A stretch of DNA of 24,000 bases from Terriglobia bacterium (GTDB taxonomy: Bacteria; Acidobacteriota; Terriglobia; Acidiferrales; UBA7541), in the NCBI GenBank assembly GCA_963746945.1, contig CAVVDG010000001.1, forward strand, positions 99,077-123,076, written 5' to 3'. The notes under the pieces were generated by a model. The model made no database searches, was not told where the DNA came from, and saw only the letters and a program-made list of their open reading frames with translations. The position numbers and the translations under genes were made by a program. Positions 3,417 through 24,000 of the stretch are shown here, piece after piece. How positions within the stretch are numbered: the first letter of the stretch is position 1; each line of letters opens with the position of its first letter.

Positions 3417-4412
3417 ATGATTACTGTCAAAGGCCTTACAAAAAGGTACGCCCACAATACTGCCGTAGACCACATCTCATTTGAAGTCGAACGGGGGCAA
3501 ATCGTTGGTTTTCTTGGACCTAACGGCGCCGGCAAGACCACTACGATGCGCATGCTCACGTGCTTTTTGACGCCCTCGGGCGGTTCGGCGACCGTGGCGG
3601 GCTTCGATATCCTCGAACAGCCCCTGGAAGTCAAGAAACACATCGGATACCTGCCGGAAACGCCGCCAGTTTATCCGGAAATGCGCGTCGGCGAGTATTT
3701 GACCTTCGTGGGCCGGCTCAAGGGGCTTTCCGGGGCGGAACTCCGCACGCGCGTGGGCTATTCCTGCGAGCGCTGCTCGGTCGCGGACGTCCGGAACAAG
3801 ATCATCGGAAAGCTTTCCAAGGGCTACCGACAGCGCGTCGGCCTGGCTCAATCCATCATCCACAATCCCGACGTGCTGATCCTGGATGAACCGACGGCGG
3901 GGCTGGATCCAAAACAGATCAATGAGACGCGAGACCTCATCAAGAGCCTGGCCGGCGATCACACCATCATCTTGAGCACGCATATTCTTCCCGAGGTCAG
4001 CCAGACCTGCGAGCAGGTCATTATCATCAACAAGGGCAAGATCGTGGCCACCGACTCGGTGAGCAATCTGCAAAACCGCGCGCGCTCCGGAGAATCGGTG
4101 CTGGTTGAAGTTGCCGGCCGCAACGGCAGCCTGGATCCCGCCGCGGTGCAACACAAACTGGAGCAAGTCGCGGGAGTCAGCCGGGTTATCTCCAAGGCCG
4201 ACGGCCAGAAACGCGTGATTTTTGAAGTCGAGGGAAGCAAGGACCGCTCCATTCGCGGCGAAATCGCGCGCGCGGTCGTCGAATCCGGCTGGGACCTGAA
4301 TGAGCTGCGCGCCGCCGCGATCAGCCTGGAAGAAATCTTCCTCCAGCTTACCGGATCGGAAGCGCCCGCCGAACTGGAAGGCGTCGCGGCAGGGGGACAA
4401 AACCAATCATGA
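3417..4412 (+). CDS. ABC transporter ATP-binding protein (ABC-2 / GldA-like)
   Basis: Walker A GPNGAGKTT, signature LSKGYRQRV, Walker B VLILDEPTAGLD and H-loop STHIL. The stop TGA overlaps the ATG of the next gene (ATGA at 4409-4412). Confidence 0.93.
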   Translation: MITVKGLTKRYAHNTAVDHISFEVERGQIVGFLGPNGAGKTTTMRMLTCFLTPSGGSATVAGFDILEQPLEVKKHIGYLPETPPVYPEMRVGEYLTFVGRLKGLSGAELRTRVGYSCERCSVADVRNKIIGKLSKGYRQRVGLAQSIIHNPDVLILDEPTAGLDPKQINETRDLIKSLAGDHTIILSTHILPEVSQTCEQVIIINKGKIVATDSVSNLQNRARSGESVLVEVAGRNGSLDPAAVQHKLEQVAGVSRVISKADGQKRVIFEVEGSKDRSIRGEIARAVVESGWDLNELRAAAISLEEIFLQLTGSEAPAELEGVAAGGQNQS

Positions 4413-5177
4413 AGAATATCTGGATCATTTGCCGCAAGGAACTCCGCAGTTATTTCGTTTCTCCGGTCGCTTATATCCTGCTCGTCCTGTTTGCCGTCAT
4501 TTTCGGGTTCTTCTTCTGGAACTCGCTGGGCTATGTCGTGAACGTGGCCATGGAAGCCCAGATGCAAGGTGAACCGTTTACCATGAATGTCAACGAGCAG
4601 GTCGTGCGGCCCCTGCTTGCCAACCTCAACGTAATCGGCCTGTTTTTCATACCCCTGATCACCATGCGCCTGTTTGCCGAGGAAAAACGCAGCGGCACCA
4701 TCGAACTGCTCACCACTTCTCCCATCCGGGACTCCGAAGTGATCGTGGGAAAATGGCTGGCGGCGCTTCTGATGTATGCGGCTCATGCTGCTGACGACCG
4801 TGCTCGACTTCGTTTTCCTTTTCCGGTACGGCAACCCCGATTGGAAGCCAGTGGCCATCGGATTCCTGGGCCTTCTGCTGCAGGCCGGCGGGTTGCTGGC
4901 CATCGGAACGTTTATTTCCTCGCTCACGCGGAATCAGATCATCGCCGGCGCCGTGACGTTCGCGGTCTGCCTGTTGCTGTGGGTGCTGGGCTGGGTCAGC
5001 GAGTACAATAACGCCACGTGGGCCCAGGTGCTTTCCTATATGTGCGTGATCACGCACTTCGATTCGTTTGCCAAAGGCGTAATCGATTCAAGAGATGTGA
5101 TCTTTGACGCGACGGTGATCTTCCTGGGCCTGTTTTTTACCGCGCGTTCGATGGAATCCCTGCGTTGGAGGTCGTAA
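4409..5177 (+). pseudogene. ABC-2 type permease (GldF-like) interrupted by a +1 frameshift near 4772-4782
   Basis: ORF 4409..5011 reads like a permease up to ...GKWLAALLMY and then becomes Arg/Pro-rich nonsense. ORF 4776..5177, in the next frame, continues with LMLLTTVLDFVFLFRYGNPDWKPVAIGFLGLLLQAGGLLAIGTFISSLTRNQIIAG. Removing one base in the GCGG at 4778-4781 restores a single multi-TM permease of about 255 aa. Coupling signals at both ends are intact. Confidence 0.75.
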
Positions 5178-6551
5178 GTGAACAGCCGTTGGATCCAGGC
5201 AAGGCAAACCAAGTACGCGGTGTATGTAACGCTTTATATTCTCGTGATCCTGGGCATCGTTTCGGTGGCCAATATTCTGGGCGATCGCTACAACAAGTCT
5301 TATGACTCGACCTCGAACAAGCGCTACAGCCTGTCCGAGCAGACCGCGAAAATTGTAAAAGGAATCTCGCAGCCGACGACCATCACCTATTACGACAAGA
5401 ACAGCAACTTCCAAACCGCAAAGGACCTGCTGGACCGCTACACGACTCTTTCGACGCGCATCCACGTGGATTACATCAATCCCGACAAGGACCCCCAAGC
5501 AGCCCGCGCCGCCGGCATCACCAAGTACGGAACCACGATCGTGCAAGTCGGCACGAAAAAGAATGAAGCCAAGAGCTTGACTGAGGAAGACGTTACCGGC
5601 GCGATCATCCGCGACCTGAAAAACAATACGCGCACCGTTTGCTTTGTTTCCGGTAGCGGCGAACATCGCCTGGACGACACCGACCGCAACGGCTATTCGC
5701 ACCTGAAGGATGATCTGGGCAAGGACGACTATCAGACCAAGACCATCAGCCTGCTCGAAAAGCCCGAAGTCCCCGCGGACTGCACGGTGGTGGTGGTGGG
5801 CGGCCCCAAGAACGACTACCAGCAGCCGGAAGTGGACGCGATCAAGAAGTACGTCGAGCAGGGCGGCCGGGCGATGTTCCTGCTCGACCCGCCGCTGAAG
5901 ATCGGGCGCCCCACCGCGGACAACAATGCCCTGGCAAGCCTTCTGCAAAGTTGGGGCGTCACGCTGAAAAACAACCTGCTCCTGGATATGAATCCCGTGG
6001 GCCAATTGATGGGCGTGGGTCCCCAGATCGCCCTCGTCTCCGCCTACGAATCGCAACCGATCGTGGACGACATGAAGGGCACAGCGACCGGCTTCCCGCT
6101 TTCGCGATCGATGACCGTCAAGAATACGGATAAGACGAAGGTGCAAAAACTGTTCGAATCCTCCGCATCGACCTTTGCGACTTCCAAGCTGGATTCACCC
6201 AACGTCAATCCGAACGACCCCAGCAATCAGAGGGGTCCACTGACGATCGCCGCTGCGGGCAGCTATGCGACCGGCAAGAAAGATTCAGAGGGCCGCTTTG
6301 TGGTCGTCGGCAGTTCCATGTGGGCCGCCAATTCGTTTCTCAACTTCAATGGAAACAGCGATCTTGCTTTGAACGCGATGAACTGGCTTTCCTCGGACGA
6401 AGACCTGATTTCCATCCGCCCGAAACCTCCGGAAAACCGCAAGATCACCATGACGCAGTCTCAATTTGCCTGGGTACGGCTCAGCACTCAGTTTCTCCTG
6501 CCGGCCGCGCTGCTTCTGATGGGACTGTCGGTCTGGTGGCGGAGAAGGTAG
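5178..6551 (+). CDS. GldG-like ABC transporter auxiliary component
   Basis: GTG start immediately after the permease TAA stop, with GGAGG 6 nt upstream. It has an N-terminal TM helix (YAVYVTLYILVILGIVSVANIL), a large extracytoplasmic domain and a C-terminal TM helix (LSTQFLLPAALLLMGLSVWW). That is the architecture I associate with the GldG family, and it sits in the expected position after the ATPase and permease. Confidence 0.85.
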   Translation: MNSRWIQARQTKYAVYVTLYILVILGIVSVANILGDRYNKSYDSTSNKRYSLSEQTAKIVKGISQPTTITYYDKNSNFQTAKDLLDRYTTLSTRIHVDYINPDKDPQAARAAGITKYGTTIVQVGTKKNEAKSLTEEDVTGAIIRDLKNNTRTVCFVSGSGEHRLDDTDRNGYSHLKDDLGKDDYQTKTISLLEKPEVPADCTVVVVGGPKNDYQQPEVDAIKKYVEQGGRAMFLLDPPLKIGRPTADNNALASLLQSWGVTLKNNLLLDMNPVGQLMGVGPQIALVSAYESQPIVDDMKGTATGFPLSRSMTVKNTDKTKVQKLFESSASTFATSKLDSPNVNPNDPSNQRGPLTIAAAGSYATGKKDSEGRFVVVGSSMWAANSFLNFNGNSDLALNAMNWLSSDEDLISIRPKPPENRKITMTQSQFAWVRLSTQFLLPAALLLMGLSVWWRRR

Positions 6552-6591
6552 CGGGAACGCCGGGAAAACTTCATTCACCGCTGAAAATATT

Positions 6592-7926
6592 ATGATGAAA
6601 ATGCGACAACTTATCGCAGCCGCCGTCGTGCTTGCCGCGCTGGCCGCGACGCTTTACTGGTCCAACCACCACAAGCCGGCGGACACCAGCGCAAAAACCG
6701 ATGCGACCACAAAAATCATTTCCCTCACGCGGGATGACATCAACAAGCTGGAAATCAAGAAACAGGGCGAAGGCGACGTCGTTCTGAACCGAGTGGGGCC
6801 GGACCACTGGAAAATCACGTCGCCCAAAACGCTGATTGCCGATGAGAACGTGGTTTCGCCCATGCTCTACGCGCTTTCCCCCATGGATTCCGCCACGCTG
6901 ATCGAGGAAAAAGCCGGCGACCTGAAACCCTTCGGCCTGGCCGATCCCGCCGTCACCGTTTCCGTCACCGAAAAGGACGGCAAGACGCAGACGCTTCGGT
7001 TTGGCGACAACACACCCACCGGCGATTCCGCTTACGTGATGCTTTCCGGCGATCCGCGCCTGTTTTCCGTCGCCGCCGCCACCAAAACGGAATTCGACAA
7101 AAACCTCACGGACCTGCGGGACAAACGCCTGCTCCCGGTCGATTTCGAAAACATCACCAGCGTGCAAATCACCAATCCGAAACTCAACCTCACGTTCGGC
7201 TCCGACGACGGCCAATGGACCGTTCGCATTCCCAAACAAATGCGCGGGGACACCTCGAAACTCGAGGGCGTGATGGAAAAACTGAAAGAAGCCGACATGG
7301 ATCCCAGCACACCGACGGCGGAAATGAACAAGGCCGCGTCTTTGTTTGCCTCGGGGACGCCGGTGGCAACCGTGAAGGCGACCGATGCGTCAGGCACGCA
7401 GGAGCTGCAAGTTCGCAAGAACGGAAATGCCTACTACGCCAAGACCACGGCCATGAATGGCGCGTACAAGGTTTCGAACGATCTTGGCAAGGATGTGGCC
7501 CAGAATCTCGAGGAATTCCGCGAACACAGATTGTTCGATTTCGCGGCCGAAGATCCGGACAAAGTGGAAATGCACGACGGGCCCAAGGCGTATTACCTGA
7601 CGCACAGCGGCGAGGACTATTGGTCGGGGGAAGGCAAAAAGATGGACCCGCTGAGCGTGCAGGACTTTCTCCGCGTCGTCCGCACGTTGACCGCCACGAA
7701 ATTTGTGACATCCGGATTCTCAGACCCCACGATCAAAATTGTGGCCACCTCGCGGGGCGGCAAGCGCGTGGAAAAAGTGGACATTGCGAAAACCGGCGCC
7801 AACTACATCGCGAAGAGAGAAGACGGACCGACGCTCTATGAACTGGACCCGGCGCGAATCGCCGACTTGCGAAAAAACGCAGCCGCTATGAAACCTGCCC
7901 AGGCTCCCCCGGCCAAGAAGAAATAA
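6592..7926 (+). CDS. DUF4340-like domain protein, N-terminally anchored
   Basis: N-terminal anchor MRQLIAAAVVLAALAATLYW, followed by repeated beta-rich segments (KLEIKKQGEGDVVLNRVGPDHWKITSP...LRFGDNTPTGDSAYVML). As I recall, this is the usual fourth gene of GldA/F/G-like operons. Confidence 0.78.
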   Translation: MMKMRQLIAAAVVLAALAATLYWSNHHKPADTSAKTDATTKIISLTRDDINKLEIKKQGEGDVVLNRVGPDHWKITSPKTLIADENVVSPMLYALSPMDSATLIEEKAGDLKPFGLADPAVTVSVTEKDGKTQTLRFGDNTPTGDSAYVMLSGDPRLFSVAAATKTEFDKNLTDLRDKRLLPVDFENITSVQITNPKLNLTFGSDDGQWTVRIPKQMRGDTSKLEGVMEKLKEADMDPSTPTAEMNKAASLFASGTPVATVKATDASGTQELQVRKNGNAYYAKTTAMNGAYKVSNDLGKDVAQNLEEFREHRLFDFAAEDPDKVEMHDGPKAYYLTHSGEDYWSGEGKKMDPLSVQDFLRVVRTLTATKFVTSGFSDPTIKIVATSRGGKRVEKVDIAKTGANYIAKREDGPTLYELDPARIADLRKNAAAMKPAQAPPAKKK

Positions 7927-8073: not shown

Positions 8074-8814
8074 TTAAGCCTTCGGATAAAAGTCAAGCAG
8101 GCGCACATCGATTCCCGTGCCCTCTAGGGCCTTCTTGAACACGGTGGTGTCCTGTCCCCGGTAGTGGTACGGAATCACGACCTTCGGATGAAACGCCTTG
8201 ACGGCTTCGGCTGCTTCTTCCGGAGGCATGGTGTAAGGCAGATTCATGCAAACAAACGCCACGTCAATGTTCTTGAGGGCGCGCATTTCCGGAGTGTTCG
8301 CGGTGTCGCCCGAAAAATAGAAGCGCTTGCCGCCATAGGTGAGCACGTACCCGTTACCGCGCCCTTTGGGGTGAAACAGCTGACCGGGCTTGGGACCCCG
8401 GGTCAGGTTGTACATGGGAATCGCTTCAATCGTCCAGGCGCCCCACGTTTTTGTTTCGCCGTTGGAAATCGGCATGGCCGTCGTCACCGTCTTCACCACT
8501 GCCGGGGGAGCCATAATTTCCGTTCCCGCCTTGCTCACCGTCTTGATCAGCGCGGGGTCCATGTGGTCGCCGTGGATGTCCGTGATCAGAATCAGATCAG
8601 CCTGCGGAAGTCCCGTGAACACGGCAGGCTTGGCAGGATCAAGGATGATGACCTTGCCGCCCGCTTCGATCTCCACCGAGGCATGGTATACCGGCGTGAT
8701 TTTCACCGGACCGGCCGACGTATCAAACGTCTGCGTAGGCCTCATCTGCGCCTGCACCCCCACCGCAAACAGGGCGATGGCTGCCAGAGAAAAAATCCGT
8801 ACAATTGATTTCAT
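8074..8814 (-). CDS. Secreted MBL-fold metallo-hydrolase
   Basis: Signal peptide MKSIVRIFSLAAIALFAVGVQAQ. It has the metallo-beta-lactamase-type motif LILITDIHGDHMD plus later His/Asp residues (FSGDT, PYHY). GGAG lies 7 nt upstream of the ATG. Confidence 0.85.
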   Translation of the reverse strand: MKSIVRIFSLAAIALFAVGVQAQMRPTQTFDTSAGPVKITPVYHASVEIEAGGKVIILDPAKPAVFTGLPQADLILITDIHGDHMDPALIKTVSKAGTEIMAPPAVVKTVTTAMPISNGETKTWGAWTIEAIPMYNLTRGPKPGQLFHPKGRGNGYVLTYGGKRFYFSGDTANTPEMRALKNIDVAFVCMNLPYTMPPEEAAEAVKAFHPKVVIPYHYRGQDTTVFKKALEGTGIDVRLLDFYPKA

Positions 8815-9026
8815 TTGAACACTCCTGTAGTTTATTGCACCCTGAACCTTCGGAATCTTAGCATGCGTGCAGCCCCCCTACAACTTCATCAACCGGAGGA
8901 ATCGTCTTCACGCAGTTTGCGGGCTCGCCGGAATCGCCGGTCTTTGCCCTGCCTGTACCAAAGGCCAGATGGCTCTTTCGCAATTTTTCGCGGACGAGTG
9001 ATTGTTGCCCTTCCACCCTGCGTAGA

Positions 9027-9466: not shown

Positions 9467-9531
9467 GTGGACACAAGTTCCCCAAGACGCTGTAAGCAAT
9501 GAGAGCGCCCAAGAGAGGGGGTCCATCACGT

Positions 9532-10635
9532 ATGGCCGCAACGTTTCGCGCTGAGCACGTGGGCAGTTTGCTTCGTCCGCCGGAACTGTTGCGAGCCCGA
9601 TCGGCCCATCCCGCAGGCCGGCTCAACCTGCAAGAACTGCGAACCCTGGAAGACCAAGCCATCCTTCAAGTCCTGGAAAAGCAAGCCCAGTTGGGATTGA
9701 GCATCGTCACCGACGGAGAAATGCGCCGCGACTCGTGGCTCACCGACATGGCGGACGCCGTGAACGGATTCGTTCCCGAGCGCGTGGCGCTGGAATGGAA
9801 GGGACCCGGCGGGGGCATGGAGGGGAGCACGGCGCATACCGTCGGCGCAAAGCTGCAAAAGGTCCGGAAAATGACGGGCCATGAAGTTCCCTTTTTGAAA
9901 AAAAACGCGAAAGGGCCGTTCAAAGTTACGCTTCCCGCGCCCTCCAACTTCATGATCACCAGCTATAGGGCGGGCACCACCGATCCGTTCTATCCGACGC
10001 GCGGCGATCTGCTCAAGGATCTGGTGGCGATTGTTCACGACGACGTGCAATGGCTGGTATCGGAAGGCGTGCAGTACATTCAATTCGACGCTCCCTATTA
10101 CTCGCATTACCTTGACCCGCGGCAGCGCGCGAACATGCGCCGGGCGGGGATCGACCCGGACAAGGAACTGGAAGATGCGATTGCCGGAGACAATGCGGCG
10201 TTGCGCGACGTTCCGCGCGGCGGCGTTACGCTCGCCTTGCACATCTGCCGGGGAAACAGCAGAAGCCGTTGGTACACCGAGGGCGGCTACGACTCCATCG
10301 CCGAAAAACTTTTCGGATCGCTCCTTGTGGATCGATTCCTGCTCGAATATGACACCGGCCGCTCCGGCGGGTTCGAGCCGCTGCGACTTGTGCCGCGGGG
10401 CAAGAGCGTCGTGCTGGGACTGGTCACCTCCAAGGAGCCGAACCTGGAATCGCAGGACGACCTTCGGCGGCGAATCGACGAAGCGGCGAAATTCGTGCCC
10501 ATGGAAAACCTCGCGCTCAGCCCGCAATGCGGTTTCGCTTCCGTGGCGGCCGGGAACCTGATTTCGATGGACCAGCAGTGGAAAAAACTCGAACTGGTTG
10601 TGGAAACCGCCCGGAAAGTCTGGGGCACGCCGTAA
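9532..10635 (+). CDS. Cobalamin-independent methionine synthase (MetE C-terminal domain)-like methyltransferase
   Basis: MAATFRAEHVGSLLRPPELL...IVTDGEMRRDSW...LHICRGN...LSPQCGFAS, with Zn-ligand-type His/Cys positions of the MetE catalytic-domain family. I prefer the start at 9532 because homologues as I recall begin just before FRA(D/E)HVGSLLRP. The track ORF begins at 9499. Confidence 0.85.
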   Translation: MAATFRAEHVGSLLRPPELLRARSAHPAGRLNLQELRTLEDQAILQVLEKQAQLGLSIVTDGEMRRDSWLTDMADAVNGFVPERVALEWKGPGGGMEGSTAHTVGAKLQKVRKMTGHEVPFLKKNAKGPFKVTLPAPSNFMITSYRAGTTDPFYPTRGDLLKDLVAIVHDDVQWLVSEGVQYIQFDAPYYSHYLDPRQRANMRRAGIDPDKELEDAIAGDNAALRDVPRGGVTLALHICRGNSRSRWYTEGGYDSIAEKLFGSLLVDRFLLEYDTGRSGGFEPLRLVPRGKSVVLGLVTSKEPNLESQDDLRRRIDEAAKFVPMENLALSPQCGFASVAAGNLISMDQQWKKLELVVETARKVWGTP

Positions 10636-10902
10636 TAAGATCGGATCGCAACACCAAACCGTAACACCGGCCCGAAACGCCATCTAAAATTCTGGACCAG
10701 CAGGCTGCCCTCCGCGTGAATCCGGGAAATTCAGAATCCCCTGCTTCTGACTTTCCAGGACACCATTGCCTCGACCGTCATCGGTATCATTGCAGTTTGG
10801 CAAATTGAGCTGAAGGAATTGGATCGCTCGACAGAATTCCTCGGAGCCATTTACACTGGTGGCCGCGATTGTGAGCCGCGGACGAAACAACAAGGATGGT
10901 TG

Positions 10903-11226
10903 ATGCCCAGCGTTACTTATCTTTTACCGGGCGGGACTTCGCGAACCATTGACGTGCCCGCCGGAACATCGGTGATGCAGGCTGCGCTGCAGCACCGCGT
11001 CGAGGGGATTCTCGGCGAGTGCGGCGGCAATTGCATGTGCGCGACCTGCCACGTCTACGTGGATCCCGATTTTTTCAGCCGTATTCCCGAGCCCCTGGAA
11101 AATGAGAAGTTCATGCTGAGCATCGCCGCGGAAGGACCCCGGCCCAACAGCCGCTTGAGCTGCCAGATCAAAATGAAGGATGAATGGGACGGGCTCATAG
11201 TGCGGCTTCCGGCAAAGCAACGGTGA
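10903..11226 (+). CDS. [2Fe-2S] ferredoxin, putidaredoxin/adrenodoxin type
   Basis: Cys pattern ECGGNCMCATCHVYVDP plus the distal SRLSCQI. The product is 107 aa. The ATG at 10903 has AAGGA 6 nt upstream. The track ORF start at 10819 is a TTG with no usable spacing to an SD. Confidence 0.88.
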   Translation: MPSVTYLLPGGTSRTIDVPAGTSVMQAALQHRVEGILGECGGNCMCATCHVYVDPDFFSRIPEPLENEKFMLSIAAEGPRPNSRLSCQIKMKDEWDGLIVRLPAKQR

Positions 11227-18992: not shown

Positions 18993-19193
18993 TGCGCCCC
19001 CCTACCAGCCAAACGCGCGACCCGATTATTGTAAGCGAACCTGGATTTCAAGAGGTGCAATGTTCCAAAATCATTTTCTAAAATCCTGCGCCGGGCTTTC
19101 CGGCCCCGGCCGGTTTGGATTTCATTGAATCTTGCAGTATCGTAGGAGGGACACGATAGCTCAATTCTTGAATCAGTTCGAGGGAGGATGCAG

Positions 19194-19532
19194 ATGGCGG
19201 ATGATTCCAGCGGGCCCACAAAACCAGAGGCTTCCGGTGAACCCCAAAAGCCGGGCGAACGAATCGTACATTGCGTGAAATTCGGCAAAGATCTTCCTGG
19301 TCTGGACCGGGTTCCCTGGAAGGGCGAACTGGGCAAGAAAGTCTACGAGAATGTGTCCAAAGACGCGTGGAAGCTGTGGATCGAACACTCGAAGATGCTG
19401 ATGAACGAGTACCGCTTGAATCCACTCGACCCGCAATCGCAGAAGATCATGGAAGAGCAAATGGACCAGTTTTTCTTCGGCGAAGGCGCAAAACTTCCCG
19501 CGGAATACGTTCCGCCAAAGGCCAAGGGTTAA
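19194..19532 (+). CDS. yggX: Fe(2+)-trafficking / oxidative-damage protection protein YggX
   Basis: IVHCVKFGKDLPGLDRVPWKGELGKKVYENVSKDAWKLWIEHSKMLMNEYRLNP...EEQMDQFFFGEG parallels E. coli YggX (IFCTFLQREAEG...YPGELGKRIYNEISKEAW). GGAGG is 6 nt upstream of the ATG at 19194, whereas the track start at 19188 abuts the SD. Confidence 0.85.
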   Translation: MADDSSGPTKPEASGEPQKPGERIVHCVKFGKDLPGLDRVPWKGELGKKVYENVSKDAWKLWIEHSKMLMNEYRLNPLDPQSQKIMEEQMDQFFFGEGAKLPAEYVPPKAKG

Positions 19533-20824
19533 TCCGGCGTCCCCGCGGGCGGCAGCGTTCCGGTTACCGGATGCTCGACCGGCAATCGTTCGATCATTTC
19601 GAATTTTAGAACGCTGTGCGCAAGGCGGAGCGTTGCCTCCACTTCCTCGGGCGATTTCGCTCTCGCGAAAATAAATCCAAGATAGGTCGATCCCTCCGGC
19701 CACGCCGCGATGAAGTCGTGCAGGCGGGCCGTAATCTCTACCCCGTCCACATGCGGCGTCGCGCGGGCTTTTTCCACTCCCTCGACGCCCTCCAGGACCC
19801 CCGTTTTCGGCACCGGAACCATCATGACGCCGGAGGCCTCGCTTTCCCGGTCCAGATCGCTGTCCGGCAATCCCATCGCATGGCGCACGAGCAATTCCTC
19901 CAGCGGAATCAGCTGCGGGCCAAAACGCAGCGCGCGCGAACACAGGCCGCCAATGGGCCTTGGCGATACTTCGAGCACCCACGGACCCTGCTCGTTCACC
20001 CGGAATTCGGCATGCACCGGTCCATGCGTGAGTCCCAGGGCGCGAACTGTTGCCGCAGCGCAGTCCGCGATGCGTTCCTGCATCTCCTCCGGCTGCCGAG
20101 ACGGCGTGACGTAGATGGTTTCCTCGAAGTACGGCCCTTCCAGCGCGTCGGGCTTGTCGAAGATCGCCAGCGTCCGCAACTTCCCTCGCGTCAATAATCC
20201 TTCGACGGCAACTTCCGCGCCCGGAATGTACCGCTCGACAAGCACGCGGTCGAGTTCCCCTTCGCGCGTGGCCTGAATTTCGGGAGAGTTCAGGAGAGAC
20301 TGGATGCGCTCCACGGCCGCTTGAAACTCCTCGGGATTGTTGGCGCGGATCACGCCCTGGCTCGCCGCCAGCCGCAAAGGTTTGACGACGCACGGGAAAT
20401 GCACGCGCGGAAGAATTTTCTCCACGCGCTTATCGAGGCGGAAGCAGAAAAACCCCGGCACTGGCAGGCCCGCCTCGCGCAGCACTTCCCGCTGGCGCAA
20501 TTTACTGCGGCAATTTTCGACCGCCGCGGGCGAGTTGTACGGAATCCGGATGGCGCGGGCCACGAAAGCGGCGGAGGCCGCCGGACGATCGCCCAGCGCG
20601 ATCAGCCCGTCCAGCGGACGCACCAGGGATTGTTGAACGATGCGCCGCGCGGCATCCTCCGGCCGGTCGAAACGCACGGCCATGGCGCCGTCCGACCAGG
20701 GATCTTCGAGCTGGTCGCAGCGGTCGCTGGCGAACACGACTTCCACGCCCAGCGCGCGCGCCGTTTCGGCAAAGCTGCGCGTCTGGTAACCCAGCTTGCT
20801 CGCGAGGATGAGGATACGGCTCAT
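19529..20824 (-). CDS. ATP-grasp enzyme, L-amino-acid-ligase-like
   Basis: It has a pre-ATP-grasp N-domain, FPCVVKPLRLAASQGV (ATP lysine), VLVERYIPGAEVAVEG, and GPVHAEFRVNEQGPWVLEVSPRPIGG (Mg/ATP-binding loop). A C-terminal alpha/beta domain (GVLEGVEGVEKA...GFIFARAKSPEEVEATL) resembles the C-domains of amino-acid ligases. Confidence 0.85.
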   Translation of the reverse strand: MSRILILASKLGYQTRSFAETARALGVEVVFASDRCDQLEDPWSDGAMAVRFDRPEDAARRIVQQSLVRPLDGLIALGDRPAASAAFVARAIRIPYNSPAAVENCRSKLRQREVLREAGLPVPGFFCFRLDKRVEKILPRVHFPCVVKPLRLAASQGVIRANNPEEFQAAVERIQSLLNSPEIQATREGELDRVLVERYIPGAEVAVEGLLTRGKLRTLAIFDKPDALEGPYFEETIYVTPSRQPEEMQERIADCAAATVRALGLTHGPVHAEFRVNEQGPWVLEVSPRPIGGLCSRALRFGPQLIPLEELLVRHAMGLPDSDLDRESEASGVMMVPVPKTGVLEGVEGVEKARATPHVDGVEITARLHDFIAAWPEGSTYLGFIFARAKSPEEVEATLRLAHSVLKFEMIERLPVEHPVTGTLPPAGTPD

Positions 20825-20860
20825 GCGGTGGATGTATGCCTGATGCTGGTACTCGCCTCT

Positions 20861-20904
20861 AAGCGGGCCTAAACGGGCCTAAACGGGCCTAAACGGGCCT
20901 AAAC
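20861..20904. repeat. 10-bp tandem repeat (AAACGGGCCT), about 4.4 copies
   Basis: Read directly: aagcgggcct aaacgggcct aaacgggcct aaacgggcct aaac. That is three perfect units, one with a single mismatch, and a partial unit. The array fills most of the 74-nt gap between the radical SAM stop (TAG, 20899-20901) and the ATP-grasp start (20824). Confidence 0.9.
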
Positions 20905-22350
20905 AAACTGGTCCGCCTTGGGGACCGCTTCCTTCACTTTTCCGATGGACACAAGCTGATCGTTCATGGGCTCGGCGCAACAATACCAGGGCTCGTCCAG
21001 ATAAGGTACCGGCGCGGCTTGCGCTACGGGGGGAGCCGAGTCCCGCGGCGCGCGAATCCCGGCGGCCGCCATCGCCGCCCGCCGAATATGCCAAAATATT
21101 TCTGTCCGCGACAATTTGAGCGCATCGCCCCGCTGCACGAGGTCGGAAACGACGCGCGCCAGAGCGTCTACGCGGGCGTCTTCGTGCTTCCACGGATACA
21201 CAAGCGCCGCGGAATCAAACGGCCCCACCATGACGCGCATCTCCGGCAAATCCAGCAGGAGCGAGCCCGCCGGAATCAGCAGGCGGATCGCGAGTTGAAT
21301 GGGGGCGACATTCTCGCGCAAATCTTCCTGCGCGATCACGTCCAGCAGATCGATATATCCCTCAAGCGTGGTCCACGGCGTGAAAGGCACGAACGTGGGC
21401 AACAGCGTCATGCCCAATTCCCGGAACCTTGCGGCGACGGCGCGGAAATCGGCGCGCGTGTGTCCTTTATCGAACTTTTCGAGCACAACATCGTCCACCG
21501 ATTCGACCGCGCTGATCACGAACAGGCATCCGGTATCGCGCAGGGTTGCCAGATGATCGTCGTGCCTGCGCAAGTGCTCGATTTTGATCGTCACGTCGTA
21601 GGTGAGTTCCGGAAATTCGCGGTGCATCGCTTCGACGATGGGAAGGGCGTGCGCGGGGCCATTAAAGAAATCCGGGTCGCCAAACGTTATGTGCTGCGCC
21701 CCGGCCGCCACCTGACGGCGGATATCCTCCAGCACAACGTCGCGCTCGACCACGCGAAATGCGCCGTTGTACACGGGCACAATCGGACAGTGCCGGCAAA
21801 GGTGCTTGCATCCGCGCGTCGCTTCGGTCGACCCCGCAATGCGGCGTTCCCCGCCGGGCATCACGACGCGCGCGTACCTGCCAAGCTCCGGCATTCCCGC
21901 GCGGTCAGGCACAAGAAATTTCTGCCGCTCAAGCGAAATCACCGGCTCCGGCTGCGCCGCGCCGCCATTTTGATTTTCCGCGGCCTGCTGCAGGCGATCC
22001 GCGAGACTTGCCAGACCCTGCTCGAATTCCCCGCCCAGAATCGTACCCACGCCGAGGCCGCGCAGGTATTCTTCGTTCACGGGAGCGTAGAGGCCATAAA
22101 AGCAGAGATGCGCGTGTGGATTCATTCCCCGAACAGAAGTGATGAGTCCCGCGGCAAGCCGTGTGGCCGTGTGCATGGGCACATAAAAGGCGATCAAATC
22201 CGCCGGACCAATCGCGCCCTCATCGAGCGATTGCCGGGTCAGATCGAGGCAGGCGACCTCATGCGCGCGGGCGCGAAGCCAGGCCGCGGGCGATGCCAAA
22301 CCGAATGGCTGCCTGCCAAGTTCATACGTTGAGATGAGTACGATGTTCAT
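20899..22350 (-). CDS. Radical SAM enzyme with a B12-binding-like N-domain and a C-terminal CCAEP tail
   Basis: N-terminal Rossmann-like domain (MNIVLISTYELGRQPFGLASP...ADLIAFYVPMHT), a CxxxCxxC motif (GCKHLCRHCP), a TIM-barrel-like core (ITFGDPDFF...ISAVESVDD), and the tail YLDEPWYCCAEPMNDQL (TGT TGC at 20977-20982). Confidence 0.9.
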   Translation of the reverse strand: MNIVLISTYELGRQPFGLASPAAWLRARAHEVACLDLTRQSLDEGAIGPADLIAFYVPMHTATRLAAGLITSVRGMNPHAHLCFYGLYAPVNEEYLRGLGVGTILGGEFEQGLASLADRLQQAAENQNGGAAQPEPVISLERQKFLVPDRAGMPELGRYARVVMPGGERRIAGSTEATRGCKHLCRHCPIVPVYNGAFRVVERDVVLEDIRRQVAAGAQHITFGDPDFFNGPAHALPIVEAMHREFPELTYDVTIKIEHLRRHDDHLATLRDTGCLFVISAVESVDDVVLEKFDKGHTRADFRAVAARFRELGMTLLPTFVPFTPWTTLEGYIDLLDVIAQEDLRENVAPIQLAIRLLIPAGSLLLDLPEMRVMVGPFDSAALVYPWKHEDARVDALARVVSDLVQRGDALKLSRTEIFWHIRRAAMAAAGIRAPRDSAPPVAQAAPVPYLDEPWYCCAEPMNDQLVSIGKVKEAVPKADQFV

Positions 22351-22467
22351 CCGGCCTTGAGAATTGCAGATGCGGTTTCAAGCGGGCGCGGGCTGGGCTG
22401 GCGCTCGCCTTGAGGGAATTTAAATACGGTTCAGACCGAGGAGCCAGCCTTCTCTGTCTGGTTTTCT

Positions 22468-22493
22468 CTGAGCGTTTTTGCTGAGCGTTTTCA
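22468..22493. repeat. 13-bp tandem duplication in the rSAM upstream region
   Basis: ctgagcgtttttg followed by ctgagcgttttca, with 11 of 13 positions identical. Read directly. Confidence 0.7.
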
Positions 22494-22722
22494 GTGATCC
22501 CGTTCAAAGATCCCGAATGGCGACCGTCCCTCGGCTCCTTCCAGGAAGGAAGATGACCAAGGAAAGCATCGCCGTTTTTTTCTCAGCTGCCGGCCCGCAG
22601 CCATAAGCTCGGAGGAGAGGAATCAGAATTCAATTCTTGTGCCTACCAGGCGACACCCCAAATGCACAAGTTATCGATGCCGCCCTCTCCGCCCGAACTC
22701 TCTGATAGCGGTACGCCCAAAT

Positions 22723-23064
22723 TTATGGACAGGTAGCAGAGATATGCTTCATCGCGGTTACCTTCATGTAGTGCGGGGCCTTCGGAACGTTCTTGTTTTC
22801 CTTCATCGCTTCGGCTTCGGGCACTGCCGTTCCGGTAATTTCCACCTTATGTCCGATGTGCGGGGCCATGTTCACCGTCGACGATACGATTCCCACCGTC
22901 TTGGGTCCCTTTGCCAGGTCGGTGAGCATGTAGGTTCCGGCTGTGGGTCCCGCCCGCAAACATCCGGTCATGTTGTGAACTTTTGGCGCTTCCTGGGCAT
23001 GCGTGCCTGTGGAAATGGCAAACACGCAGGAAACAACGATTGCTGCAAGGATCGAAAGTTTCAT
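22723..23064 (-). CDS. Small secreted protein with a conserved-looking Cys pair, function unknown
   Basis: Perfect GGAGG 5 nt upstream of the ATG. Signal peptide MKLSILAAIVVSCVFAISTGTHA/QE. The mature ~90-aa beta-rich sequence has Cys in NMTGCLRAG and in the C-terminal SATCP, plus HIGHKVEITGT. Confidence 0.75.
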   Translation of the reverse strand: MKLSILAAIVVSCVFAISTGTHAQEAPKVHNMTGCLRAGPTAGTYMLTDLAKGPKTVGIVSSTVNMAPHIGHKVEITGTAVPEAEAMKENKNVPKAPHYMKVTAMKHISATCP

Positions 23065-23299: not shown

Positions 23300-24000
23300 A
23301 TGTCCCCAGTATCCAAGAATTCGTTCGGCACGCGCGAAACGCTGCCGGTTGACGGAAAAAATTACGAAATTTTCAAATTGAGCGCGCTGGAGAAAAAGGG
23401 CGTGGGCCATCCCGCGAAGCTTCCCTTCTCGCTGCGCGTGCTGCTGGAAAACCTGCTGCGCCAGGAAGACGGGCGATTCGTTCACCCGCAGGATATCGAA
23501 GCGCTGGCGGCGTGGGAACCGAATTCGGCGGCGCAGAAAGAAATTTCCTTCATGCCCGCGCGCGTGCTGCTGCAGGACTTCACCGGCGTACCCGCCGTGG
23601 TTGATCTGGCCGCGATGCGCGAAGCGTTCCGCGAACTGGGCGGCGACCCGAAAAAGGTCAATCCCCTGCTGCCTGCCGAGCTTGTGATTGACCACTCCGT
23701 GCAGGTGGACAAATCCGGCTCCGACATGGCCTTCGCCTTCAATGCGGAACTTGAATTCCACCGCAACGTCGAGCGCTACGCCTTCCTGCGCTGGGGGCAG
23801 GAAGCCATGGACAACTTTAAAGTTGTTCCTCCGGACACTGGCATCTGCCACCAAGTGAACCTGGAATACCTCGCGCGCGTCGTGTTTGACGCCGCCGTGG
23901 ACGGCAAGTCATTTGCGTTCCCCGATTCGCTGGTCGGCACGGATTCACACACCACGATGGTCAACTCCCTCGGCGTGTTTGGCTGGGGCGTCGGCGGCAT
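23300..24000 (+). CDS. acnA: Aconitate hydratase A (N-terminal part, runs off the right edge)
   Basis: Not in the ORF track because there is no in-window stop. My translation from ATG 23300 is [34 protein letters not shown]...[14 protein letters not shown]...[24 protein letters not shown]...[22 protein letters not shown]. These are hallmark aconitase motifs. Confidence 0.93.

Follow-up and report, generated by a model that had tools for sequence, protein, structure and literature searches.

A stretch of 24,000 nucleotides (nt) from a Terriglobia bacterium of soil (Acidobacteriota; assembly GCA_963746945.1, contig CAVVDG010000001.1, positions 99,077 to 123,076), hereafter the window, carries a gene for a CCAEP-tail radical S-adenosylmethionine (SAM) enzyme, a gene for an ATP-grasp ligase of the L-amino acid ligase (LAL) type and, convergent with the latter, a gene for a YggX-type protein. 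Judged from gene order in related genomes, the first two genes are a true functional pair. It is tentatively proposed, at rather less than even confidence, that the three genes constitute a pathway module for a small amino-acid-derived metabolite, in which an ArsL-like transfer of SAM's 3-amino-3-carboxypropyl (ACP) moiety would be followed by ligation. The features of the locus are as follows:

20899..22350, minus strand: CCAEP-tail radical SAM gene, 483 amino acids (aa), from the open reading frame (ORF) listing and profile matches
19529..20824, minus strand: L-amino-acid-ligase-type ATP-grasp gene, 431 aa, from the ORF listing and profile matches
19188-19532, plus strand: YggX-type Fe(2+)-trafficking/oxidative-damage-protection gene, 114 aa, convergent with the ligase gene
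20825-20898, minus strand: spacer from the radical SAM gene to the ligase gene, 74 nt, mostly a 10-nt tandem repeat, (GTTTAGGCCC)x4
21787..21810, minus strand: CxxxCxxC [4Fe-4S]/SAM motif (C181, C185, C188) in GCKHLCRHCP, radical SAM protein residues 180-189
20968..20991, minus strand: tail motif PWYCCAEP, radical SAM protein residues 454-461, the C458 codon being TGC
22351..22722, minus strand: presumed promoter/leader of the radical SAM gene, 372 nt

Both the radical SAM and the ligase ORFs have very strong profile matches, which marks them as real genes rather than chance ORFs. A preliminary description of this DNA had reported two co-oriented genes 74 nt apart, with which the ORF listing agrees (both lie on the minus strand), and all of the motifs that it quoted were found, i.e., GCKHLCRHCP (residues 180-189) and PWYCCAEP (454-461) in the radical SAM protein, and VVKP (146-149), ERYIPGAEV (197-205), HAEFRV (271-276) and LEVSPRPIGG (284-293) in the ligase. 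Its picture of a two-gene cassette with housekeeping genes on both flanks had to be revised, as the flanking gene at 19188-19532 (plus strand) is the yggX gene, a conserved third partner that co-travels with the radical SAM gene through rearrangements. Within the window the genes have no transporter, regulator or precursor gene joined to them, as had been stated, and they do form an embedded module rather than an island, set in conserved central-metabolism synteny.

The linkage of the pair was followed outward from each gene. The 80 nearest species-level genome loci of the radical SAM gene were compared, among which Acidobacteriota predominate, with Methylomirabilota, Chloroflexota, Actinomycetota, Calditrichia and Proteobacteria also represented (according to the labels of metagenome-assembled genomes, MAGs); the ligase gene adjoins the radical SAM gene in approximately 56 of the 80. 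Starting from the ligase, 80 metagenome loci were retrieved with an alignment of ligase orthologues, and in every one of the 71 loci that extend upstream for 300 nt or more the radical SAM gene lies immediately upstream of the ligase gene on the same strand, while the nine loci in which it was not seen all have less than 300 nt upstream. The ligase clade is therefore dedicated to the CCAEP radical SAM enzyme, but the converse does not apply. In distant loci, in which the radical SAM protein is ~40% identical to that of the window, the gene order is reversed and runs from a divergent NfuA-like gene to a LAL ligase gene and then to the radical SAM gene. These reversed-order loci, found in a Solirubrobacteraceae (Actinomycetota) MAG and on several long unassigned contigs, have ligase to radical SAM gaps of 7-34 nt or a 4-nt overlap, and the one reversed-order ligase that was compared, from the locus labelled L081, is 45% identical to the window ligase over its full length (E 1e-107). 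The supposition that the two genes would be co-located beyond close relatives was thus borne out, the pair having been encountered far outside close kin in both the 71 metagenome loci and the reversed-order loci. The genes of the module are separated by 3-150 nt in most loci, and by as little as 3-18 nt, distances too short to accommodate a conserved small precursor ORF. The aconitase, zwf, gnd and HAD genes were considered as further members of the module and rejected, since they are conserved within Terriglobia only and their linkage, unlike that of yggX, is thus attributable to synteny.

The yggX product scored 124.4 bits against NF003817 (cutoff 74) and 121.9 bits against PF04362. A YggX-type gene is present in approximately 50 of the 80 radical SAM genome loci, and it follows the ligase gene convergently in nearly all of the metagenome ligase loci with room downstream, ligase to yggX gaps of 3-9 nt being common in related loci. 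Four arrangements were observed: convergent with the ligase gene, as in the window; upstream of the radical SAM gene on the same strand (L053 and L054, and also L066, L070 and L072, in which the ligase gene is inverted); between the radical SAM and ligase genes (L067); and overlapping the start of the radical SAM gene by 4 nt in a locus without the ligase (L089). Because its linkage to the radical SAM gene survives all four, the YggX-type gene is, by this genomic criterion, a conserved third member of the module rather than a product of synteny. In the reversed-order loci an NfuA-like gene takes the place of yggX, and a SaoD/DsrE-family gene or DUF169 is sometimes found nearby. In L081 the former is a 121-aa gene at 8459-8824, just downstream of the radical SAM gene on the opposite strand (NF040913, 198 bits against a cutoff of 152), while a 121-aa gene of L090 (8480-8845) is assumed to be its equivalent from size and position, the scored copy being that of L081. 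Fe-S carriers are known to support radical SAM enzymes, in that NfuA reloads LipA, and YggX protects Fe-S enzymes. The genetic linkage of a YggX-type or NfuA-like gene to radical SAM genes of the window's family resembles such support systems; the CCAEP family differs from the NfuA/LipA case in having no conserved auxiliary-cluster cysteine triad, and the role of the partner is a predicted one.

The radical SAM protein is a member of NF040546, the CUAEP/CCAEP-tail radical SAM (seleno)protein family, since its score of 639.3 bits (E 3.5e-192) exceeds the curated cutoff of 500; the match spans protein residues 3-466 and model positions 1-466 of 468. The preliminary description had named this family, and the hidden Markov model (HMM) check confirms the assignment. 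The PF04055 Radical_SAM domain scored 45.2 bits (gathering threshold 29.5), and its cysteines C181, C185 and C188 are present and invariant across 35 diverse family members, among which C457 is the only other invariant cysteine. The lack of a conserved auxiliary-cluster cysteine triad argues against an auxiliary cluster, and a sacrificial cluster is thus not indicated. H187 (21790-21792, minus strand), which precedes the third cluster cysteine, is an invariant histidine in the CCAEP family (CxHxCxHCP); in most radical SAM enzymes this position is occupied by an aromatic residue. The family is sizeable: an exhaustive search of representatives gave 3499 clusters with E values of 1e-3 or better, and 647 (50% identity clusters) with 1e-30 or better, while its species-level genome loci number over 590 and its proteins in soil metagenomes run into the thousands.

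A sequence search for solved structures of the radical SAM protein returned none at E 0.01 or better. An AlphaFold2 (AF2) model was made from 35 diverse homologues, with a predicted local distance difference test (pLDDT) score of 92.4 and a predicted template modelling (pTM) score of 0.91, and a Foldseek search with this model returned AprD4 (E 2e-18, TM-score 0.65), TsrM, OxsB, MgmA and MiaB/RimO as its top PDB neighbours. The model indicates a predicted build of an N-terminal Rossmann (B12-binding-like) domain, a radical SAM core, a helical C-terminal domain and a Cys-Cys tail. The earlier claim of a B12-binding-like N-terminal domain is therefore supported as far as the fold is concerned, the model being nearest to AprD4, TsrM and OxsB, and only weakly apparent by sequence, as the Pfam domain PF02310 scored 17.6 bits, under its cutoff of 32.1. 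The fold resembles that of AprD4, which is not known to carry cobalamin, as much as those of TsrM and OxsB.

Among characterised proteins, the nearest relative of the window enzyme is ArsL (NF040542), which was the NCBIfam runner-up with 275.3 bits (E 1e-81), while the remaining families scored at most 38 bits. A Bacillus cereus protein with the RCCLKC tail is 33% identical to the window protein over residues 1-406 (E 8e-75) and has 20 of the 26 invariant and 24 of the 32 near-invariant residues of the CCAEP family, i.e., 44 of 58 conserved positions, and this comparison of conserved residues indicates that the two families differ mainly in the tail. The window protein itself does not qualify as ArsL, its score being under the NF040542 cutoff of 450, and the RCCLKC tail is not present in it; furthermore, no ars genes (arsM, arsQ or others) were found in the window or in those related loci whose neighbours were examined. 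ArsL, the enzyme that forms the C-As bond of arsinothricin by moving the ACP group of SAM onto arsenic bound to its cysteine-rich tail, is described as the sole radical SAM enzyme of canonical fold to draw on the aminocarboxypropyl half of SAM instead of the adenosyl half. It turns SAM into methylthioadenosine and ACP, and its cysteine tail binds As(III) (10.1101/2024.02.01.577332). An Fe-C-gamma organometallic species in ArsL is the proposed target of nucleophile attack (10.64898/2026.04.29.721666), and the most active ArsL form is an 'MCCA' tail variant, described as likely suppressing disulfide formation (PMC13598754), in which, by our reading, the vicinal CC pair alone is retained and sufficient. 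Common to ArsL and the window enzyme are a three-part architecture, the core, the CxxxCxxC motif and a flexible C-terminal tail with a vicinal cysteine pair. They differ in the tail sequence, WYC(C/U)AEP, often with selenocysteine (Sec), as opposed to RCCLKC, and in their partners, since ArsL has an ars operon with ArsM/ArsQ, whereas the window enzyme is instead partnered with a LAL and an iron-trafficking protein.

The tail of the window protein reads WYCCAEPMNDQ and thus contains the C-terminal W[YF]-C-[C/U]-A-E-P motif; full-length family members share the motif [LM][TS]E[PSA]W[YF]C-C-AEP[TM], and approximately half of the family representatives end exactly at W[YF]C. The tail codon could be read in 78 of the 80 genome loci, and in 52 of these the codon after the tail cysteine is TGA (selenocysteine), followed by a conserved in-frame AEPT, while the 26 others are Cys forms, so that position 458 is either Cys or TGA. 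Approximately 15 nt downstream of the TGA lies a hairpin resembling a selenocysteine insertion sequence (SECIS), with an AGUU loop and a stem whose letters vary among loci while the pairing is kept; at least five of its six core pairs are present in 31 of the 52 TGA forms, compared with 3 of the 26 Cys forms. This hairpin is absent from the window radical SAM sequence, which accordingly, as read from its codons, has Cys-Cys where most of the family has Cys-Sec. That the window holds the Cys variant of a mostly selenocysteine-containing family was not mentioned in the preliminary description. In the AF2 model the pLDDT is 84 at residues 451-460 and falls below 50 at 471-483. The invariance of C457, the Cys/Sec alternation at position 458 and the enrichment of the hairpin in TGA forms are the pattern by which the tail is judged to be under selection. 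The annotated CUAEP/CCAEP protein of the Thermomicrobium roseum DSM 5159 megaplasmid NC_011961 (L091, 8935-10431) stops at LTESWFC; as the tblastn match runs 60 nt beyond this annotated stop, it is a Sec form annotated as truncated.

The ligase of the window contains the Pfam domains ATPgrasp_N, ATP-grasp_4 (PF13535, 122 bits against a threshold of 27) and LAL_C2 (PF18603, 51.5 bits against 29.4), the last two above their thresholds, and its best solved relative is the LAL BL00235 (3VOT; E 2.9e-42, residues 20-400), with which it can be aligned from end to end, followed by BacD. The earlier designation as an L-amino-acid-ligase-like ATP-grasp enzyme is therefore well founded. It reaches no curated NCBIfam cutoff (BacD, 33 bits against 850; DdaF, 25 against 840), and PylC is not among the best 25 of its 38 NCBIfam matches, all of which are below cutoff. 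It shares its three domains with the L-amino acid ligases BL00235/3VOT, BacD/YwfE, RizA and DdaF, and differs from these in belonging to a distinct, tightly conserved clade seen only beside CCAEP radical SAM genes. Orthologues adjoining the radical SAM gene in distant loci are 43-61% identical to it over their full length, and the mean column identity of the orthologue alignment is 60%. Several LALs ligate non-proteinogenic warhead amino acids provided by neighbouring enzymes, and BL00235 is reported to prefer Met or Leu as its N-terminal substrate. Selenocysteine in the ligase was also considered and discarded, the apparent in-frame stops being true C-terminal stop codons.

In radical SAM loci without the ligase no consistent replacement partner emerged. 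The neighbours are variable and include oxidoreductase, arginase-family, glutamate-synthase-like, Fpg, arylsulfotransferase and other genes, as well as the following:

Nonomuraea: divergent GCS2 (glutamate-cysteine-ligase family 2) gene and DUF169 beside the radical SAM gene
Virgisporangium: pyridoxal phosphate (PLP) decarboxylase, non-ribosomal peptide synthetase (NRPS) A-T didomain and CmlA-like diiron beta-hydroxylase beside the radical SAM gene
Thermomicrobium roseum: divergent PLP aminotransferase and MFS transporter beside the radical SAM gene
Blastocatellia locus and L089: class I methyltransferase beside the radical SAM gene
Pyrinomonadaceae MAG, L047, 10001-13042: radical SAM gene, DUF169, CpaM (NF043040, 245 bits) and HgcAB-like fusion (NF043039, 332 bits)
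Calditrichia: NfuA-like gene upstream of the radical SAM gene

Three non-homologous carboxylate activators (LAL, GCS2 and the NRPS A-domain), together with the PLP enzymes, thus occur beside this enzyme, which suggests that a free alpha-amino acid may be its product or substrate. Methyltransferases (compare ArsM) stand beside the radical SAM gene in L047, L087 and L089, and by analogy would echo the pairing of ArsL with ArsM, while the L047 cluster is a possible link between the CUAEP radical SAM family and corrinoid-dependent metal(loid) methylation.

On these grounds a pathway can be proposed for the module. By homology to ArsL, the [4Fe-4S] cluster held by CxxxCxxC would cleave the C-gamma-S bond of SAM, giving methylthioadenosine and a cluster-bound ACP group. 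Given the nature of the tail, this group would then be captured by a soft nucleophilic atom carried on the vicinal Cys-Cys pair (Cys-Sec in most relatives), yielding a gamma-heteroatom-substituted 2-aminobutyrate, i.e., an amino acid resembling methionine, homocysteine or arsinothricin. The strict gene coupling suggests that the LAL-type ATP-grasp enzyme would next activate a carboxylate with ATP and join the amino acid to a partner, producing a dipeptide or amide. The YggX-type protein would supply or protect iron for the radical SAM cluster, a task that may fall to the NfuA-like Fe-S carrier in other lineages. The evidence establishes that the enzyme belongs to its family, that its nearest characterised relative is ArsL, that the genes are linked and that the family uses selenocysteine; the chemistry, the order of the steps and the product are put forward conditionally.

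With respect to the acceptor atom, arsenic is less favoured by the context than a chalcogen (S or Se) or some other acceptor as the putative choice, because the window and the related loci whose neighbours were examined showed no ars genes and Fe/S-relay proteins recur as partners; metal(loid) chemistry is kept possible, as far as gene content can indicate, by the HgcAB-like, CpaM and SaoD neighbours. A more specific version of the proposal is speculative and on balance improbable: an ArsL-type Fe-C ACP unit would be captured by S or Se (for example, a persulfide or perselenide on the Cys-Sec tail) or by a different soft atom, yielding a homocysteine- or selenohomocysteine-like amino acid straight from SAM, from which the ligase would then make a new low-molecular-weight thiol, selenol or metal-binding dipeptide that would occur widely among the Acidobacteriota of soil and be tied to iron and oxidative-stress physiology.

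Several points weigh against the proposed ArsL-like pathway. Cleavage of the ACP type has no known sequence signature and is thus not readable from sequence, and since ArsL binds SAM canonically, the CCAEP sister family could still generate 5'-deoxyadenosine. The CCAEP family has two conserved tail chalcogens as opposed to the three cysteines of ArsL, and a tyrosine occupies the H187 position in the Bacillus cereus ArsL-family protein. Approximately 30% of the radical SAM loci lack the ligase, which could also act before the radical SAM enzyme instead of after it, and the adjacency of yggX in Terriglobia is mostly convergent rather than operonic. No ars genes, exporter or resistance gene are present in the window or the examined related loci, which makes an arsinothricin-like antibiotic unlikely as the product. 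Lastly, the structure and function of NF040546 are described as 'not well known' (Haft 2022, 10.1101/2022.07.06.499078).

The principal alternative, which is considered unlikely although it is the best of the rivals, is that the enzyme performs conventional 5'-deoxyadenosyl radical chemistry, rearranging, dehydrating, methylating or thiolating an amino acid or dipeptide, with the CC/CU tail either swinging as a redox pair or donating a hydrogen atom, after the manner of the GCUG tail of thioredoxin reductase or the C-terminal cysteine pair of ribonucleotide reductase, and with the LAL making the substrate or ligating the product. Vicinal Cys-Sec tails are indeed classic redox shuttles, the closest solved folds (AprD4, TsrM, OxsB, MgmA, MiaB/RimO) are those of conventional or cobalamin-type enzymes, weak HMM matches were obtained to PhpK, HpnR and other B12-dependent radical SAM methylases, and the lack of a signature for ArsL-type cleavage counts on the same side. 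However, the similarity to ArsL is far above that to any 5'-deoxyadenosyl enzyme (275 bits versus at most 38), 76% of the family-invariant positions are common to an ArsL-family protein, the B12-binding domain is under the Pfam threshold, and no recurring reductase partner such as AprD3 was seen in the examined neighbourhoods.

An arsenic or antimony pathway like that of arsinothricin, in which the tail would bind As(III), MAs(III) or Sb(III) and the LAL would make a Trojan-horse dipeptide, is judged to have a small chance of being correct. It draws on the homology to ArsL and the reading of the 'MCCA' variant as showing that a vicinal CC pair suffices, on the methyltransferase, HgcAB-like/CpaM and SaoD-family neighbours in some loci, on an ars island of B. 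cereus that holds a LAL-type ATP-grasp gene alongside an ArsL-family gene, and on the connection of CU motifs with heavy-metal chemistry made by Haft (10.1101/2022.07.06.499078). Nevertheless, the surroundings of the module, both in the window and in the examined related loci, contain neither arsR, acr3, arsC, arsM, arsN nor a permease gene, the Terriglobia module is vertically conserved beside acn, zwf and gnd, and the radical SAM protein is under the ArsL cutoff with a different tail.

The B. cereus island is an observation in its own right. Plasmid pAH820_272 of strain AH820 (L092, 1444-7275) carries an RCCLKC-tail radical SAM gene in an ars island with genes for a MIP channel, a CobW GTPase, a GNAT protein and arsR/acr3/arsC/D/A, and 3.3 kb upstream lies a LAL-type ATP-grasp gene (LAL_C2, 32.9 bits). 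Its gene content hints that the B. cereus group may make an arsinothricin-type dipeptide. This ATP-grasp protein was rejected as an orthologue of the window ligase, to which it is only 28% identical over the grasp domain, and is a parallel from another clade.

Modification of a protein or ribosomal peptide is a still poorer prospect. Here the radical SAM enzyme would place ACP (in the manner of diphthamide) or a crosslink on a protein such as YggX or on an unrecognised precursor, and the ATP-grasp enzyme would add or cyclise residues in the style of RimK or the graspetides. Dph2 offers a precedent for ACP transfer to a protein, and YggX co-travels tightly with the pair and has a conserved cysteine and a lineage-specific 24-aa N-terminal extension. 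Against this, the C-terminal domain of the ligase is the LAL-specific one, the solved proteins most closely related to the ligase act on free amino acids, YggX is swapped for a non-homologous NfuA-like protein in the reversed-order pairs, gene gaps down to 3-18 nt exclude a conserved precursor ORF, and the ligase-less loci have small-molecule partners (GCS2, NRPS A-T, PLP enzymes and methyltransferases). Finally, the notion that the adjacency is phylum-level synteny without functional coupling, to which the predominance of Acidobacteriota among the sampled loci and the similarly conserved housekeeping flanks might lend weight, is barely credible and effectively refuted already by the 71 of 71 ligase-outward loci and the reversed-order loci, as the pair persists reversed, with other third partners and at ~40-45% identity, and the yggX linkage is kept through four arrangements.

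Comparison with other known systems places the module further. The likeness to PylB/PylC of pyrrolysine synthesis, drawn in the preliminary description, holds for the logic alone, by which a radical SAM enzyme makes an unusual amino acid that an ATP-grasp enzyme ligates; there is no family relationship, since PylB matches only the generic radical SAM core (Foldseek rank 50, E 4e-4) and no Pyl family is among the 14 NCBIfam matches of the radical SAM protein, and ArsL is the more informative comparison. If the ArsL analogy holds, the module would share with Dph2 and diphthamide synthesis the transfer of ACP from SAM followed by an ATP-dependent modification; Dph2, however, is not a PF04055 protein and acts on a protein, whereas the window enzyme has the canonical fold and its ligase is of the free-amino-acid type. 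From graspetide and other ribosomal-peptide ATP-grasp systems the module differs in having no adjacent precursor gene and a LAL_C2 domain, which points to free-amino-acid ligases.

Within the window, the repeat (GTTTAGGCCC)x4 was read directly from the sequence as a perfect 10-nt tandem repeat at 20865-20904 (minus strand), followed by a degenerate fifth copy; it starts within the stop codon of the radical SAM gene and fills most of the 74-nt spacer. The only terminator-like consensus match near the spacer (20926-20910) lies mostly in the coding end of the radical SAM gene and is not above shuffle expectation. The stop codons of the ligase and yggX genes overlap, as TTAA at 19529-19532, and consequently the two convergent transcripts must share sequence at their 3' ends, which could allow antisense coupling between them, as judged from this layout. 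An Rfam scan of the whole window returned zero matches, and hence no riboswitch or leader upstream of the radical SAM gene; its 372-nt upstream region contains no sigma-70-like site, and the promoter/terminator scan performed no better than shuffles.

Other genes of the window are mentioned for completeness. Between the module and the divergent aconitase gene, whose N-terminus is encoded at 23300-23998 (plus strand), lies a gene (22723-23064, minus strand) for a 113-aa protein that begins with a signal-peptide-like segment, matches nothing in Pfam or NCBIfam and is kept in the closest relatives only (L002, L003, L037 and L049). At 9499-11226 (plus strand) a short 'methionine synthase' core of the MetE-like kind (NF005085, 296.7 bits, slightly below the cutoff of 313) precedes a 2Fe-2S ferredoxin-like ORF; both are ~9 kb from the module, and linkage to it was not seen in related loci. 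A GldA/GldF/GldG-like ABC transporter set with a DUF4340 protein occupies 3417-7926 (plus strand), all of its members scoring below equivalog cutoffs. The N-terminal 258 aa of the 'glucokinase' ORF are without any domain match, and its listed start codon is probably too far upstream.

A literature search returned nothing on the module beyond Haft's one-sentence mention of NF040546 as uncharacterised, so that the name of the radical SAM family, without an assigned function, was already known, and what is new relative to the literature found is the ArsL-centred reading, the strict coupling to the ligase, the YggX/NfuA-like third partner and the alternative partners. The CCAEP family is a sister of ArsL, much larger and mostly composed of selenoproteins, and the locking of the ligase to it, together with the iron and Fe-S partners and the GCS2, NRPS and methyltransferase swaps, gives what had been a bare family name a pathway hypothesis that can be tested. 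Enzymes with a natural Cys-Cys tail, that of the window included, are tractable and avoid the problem of expressing selenocysteine, and Thermomicrobium roseum, Virgisporangium aurantiacum and a strain of Nonomuraea are cultured sources of the radical SAM family. If the ArsL-like chemistry is true, noncanonical radical SAM C-X bond formation would extend beyond arsenic, and a new metabolite could come to light in a phylum that is among the most abundant in soil.

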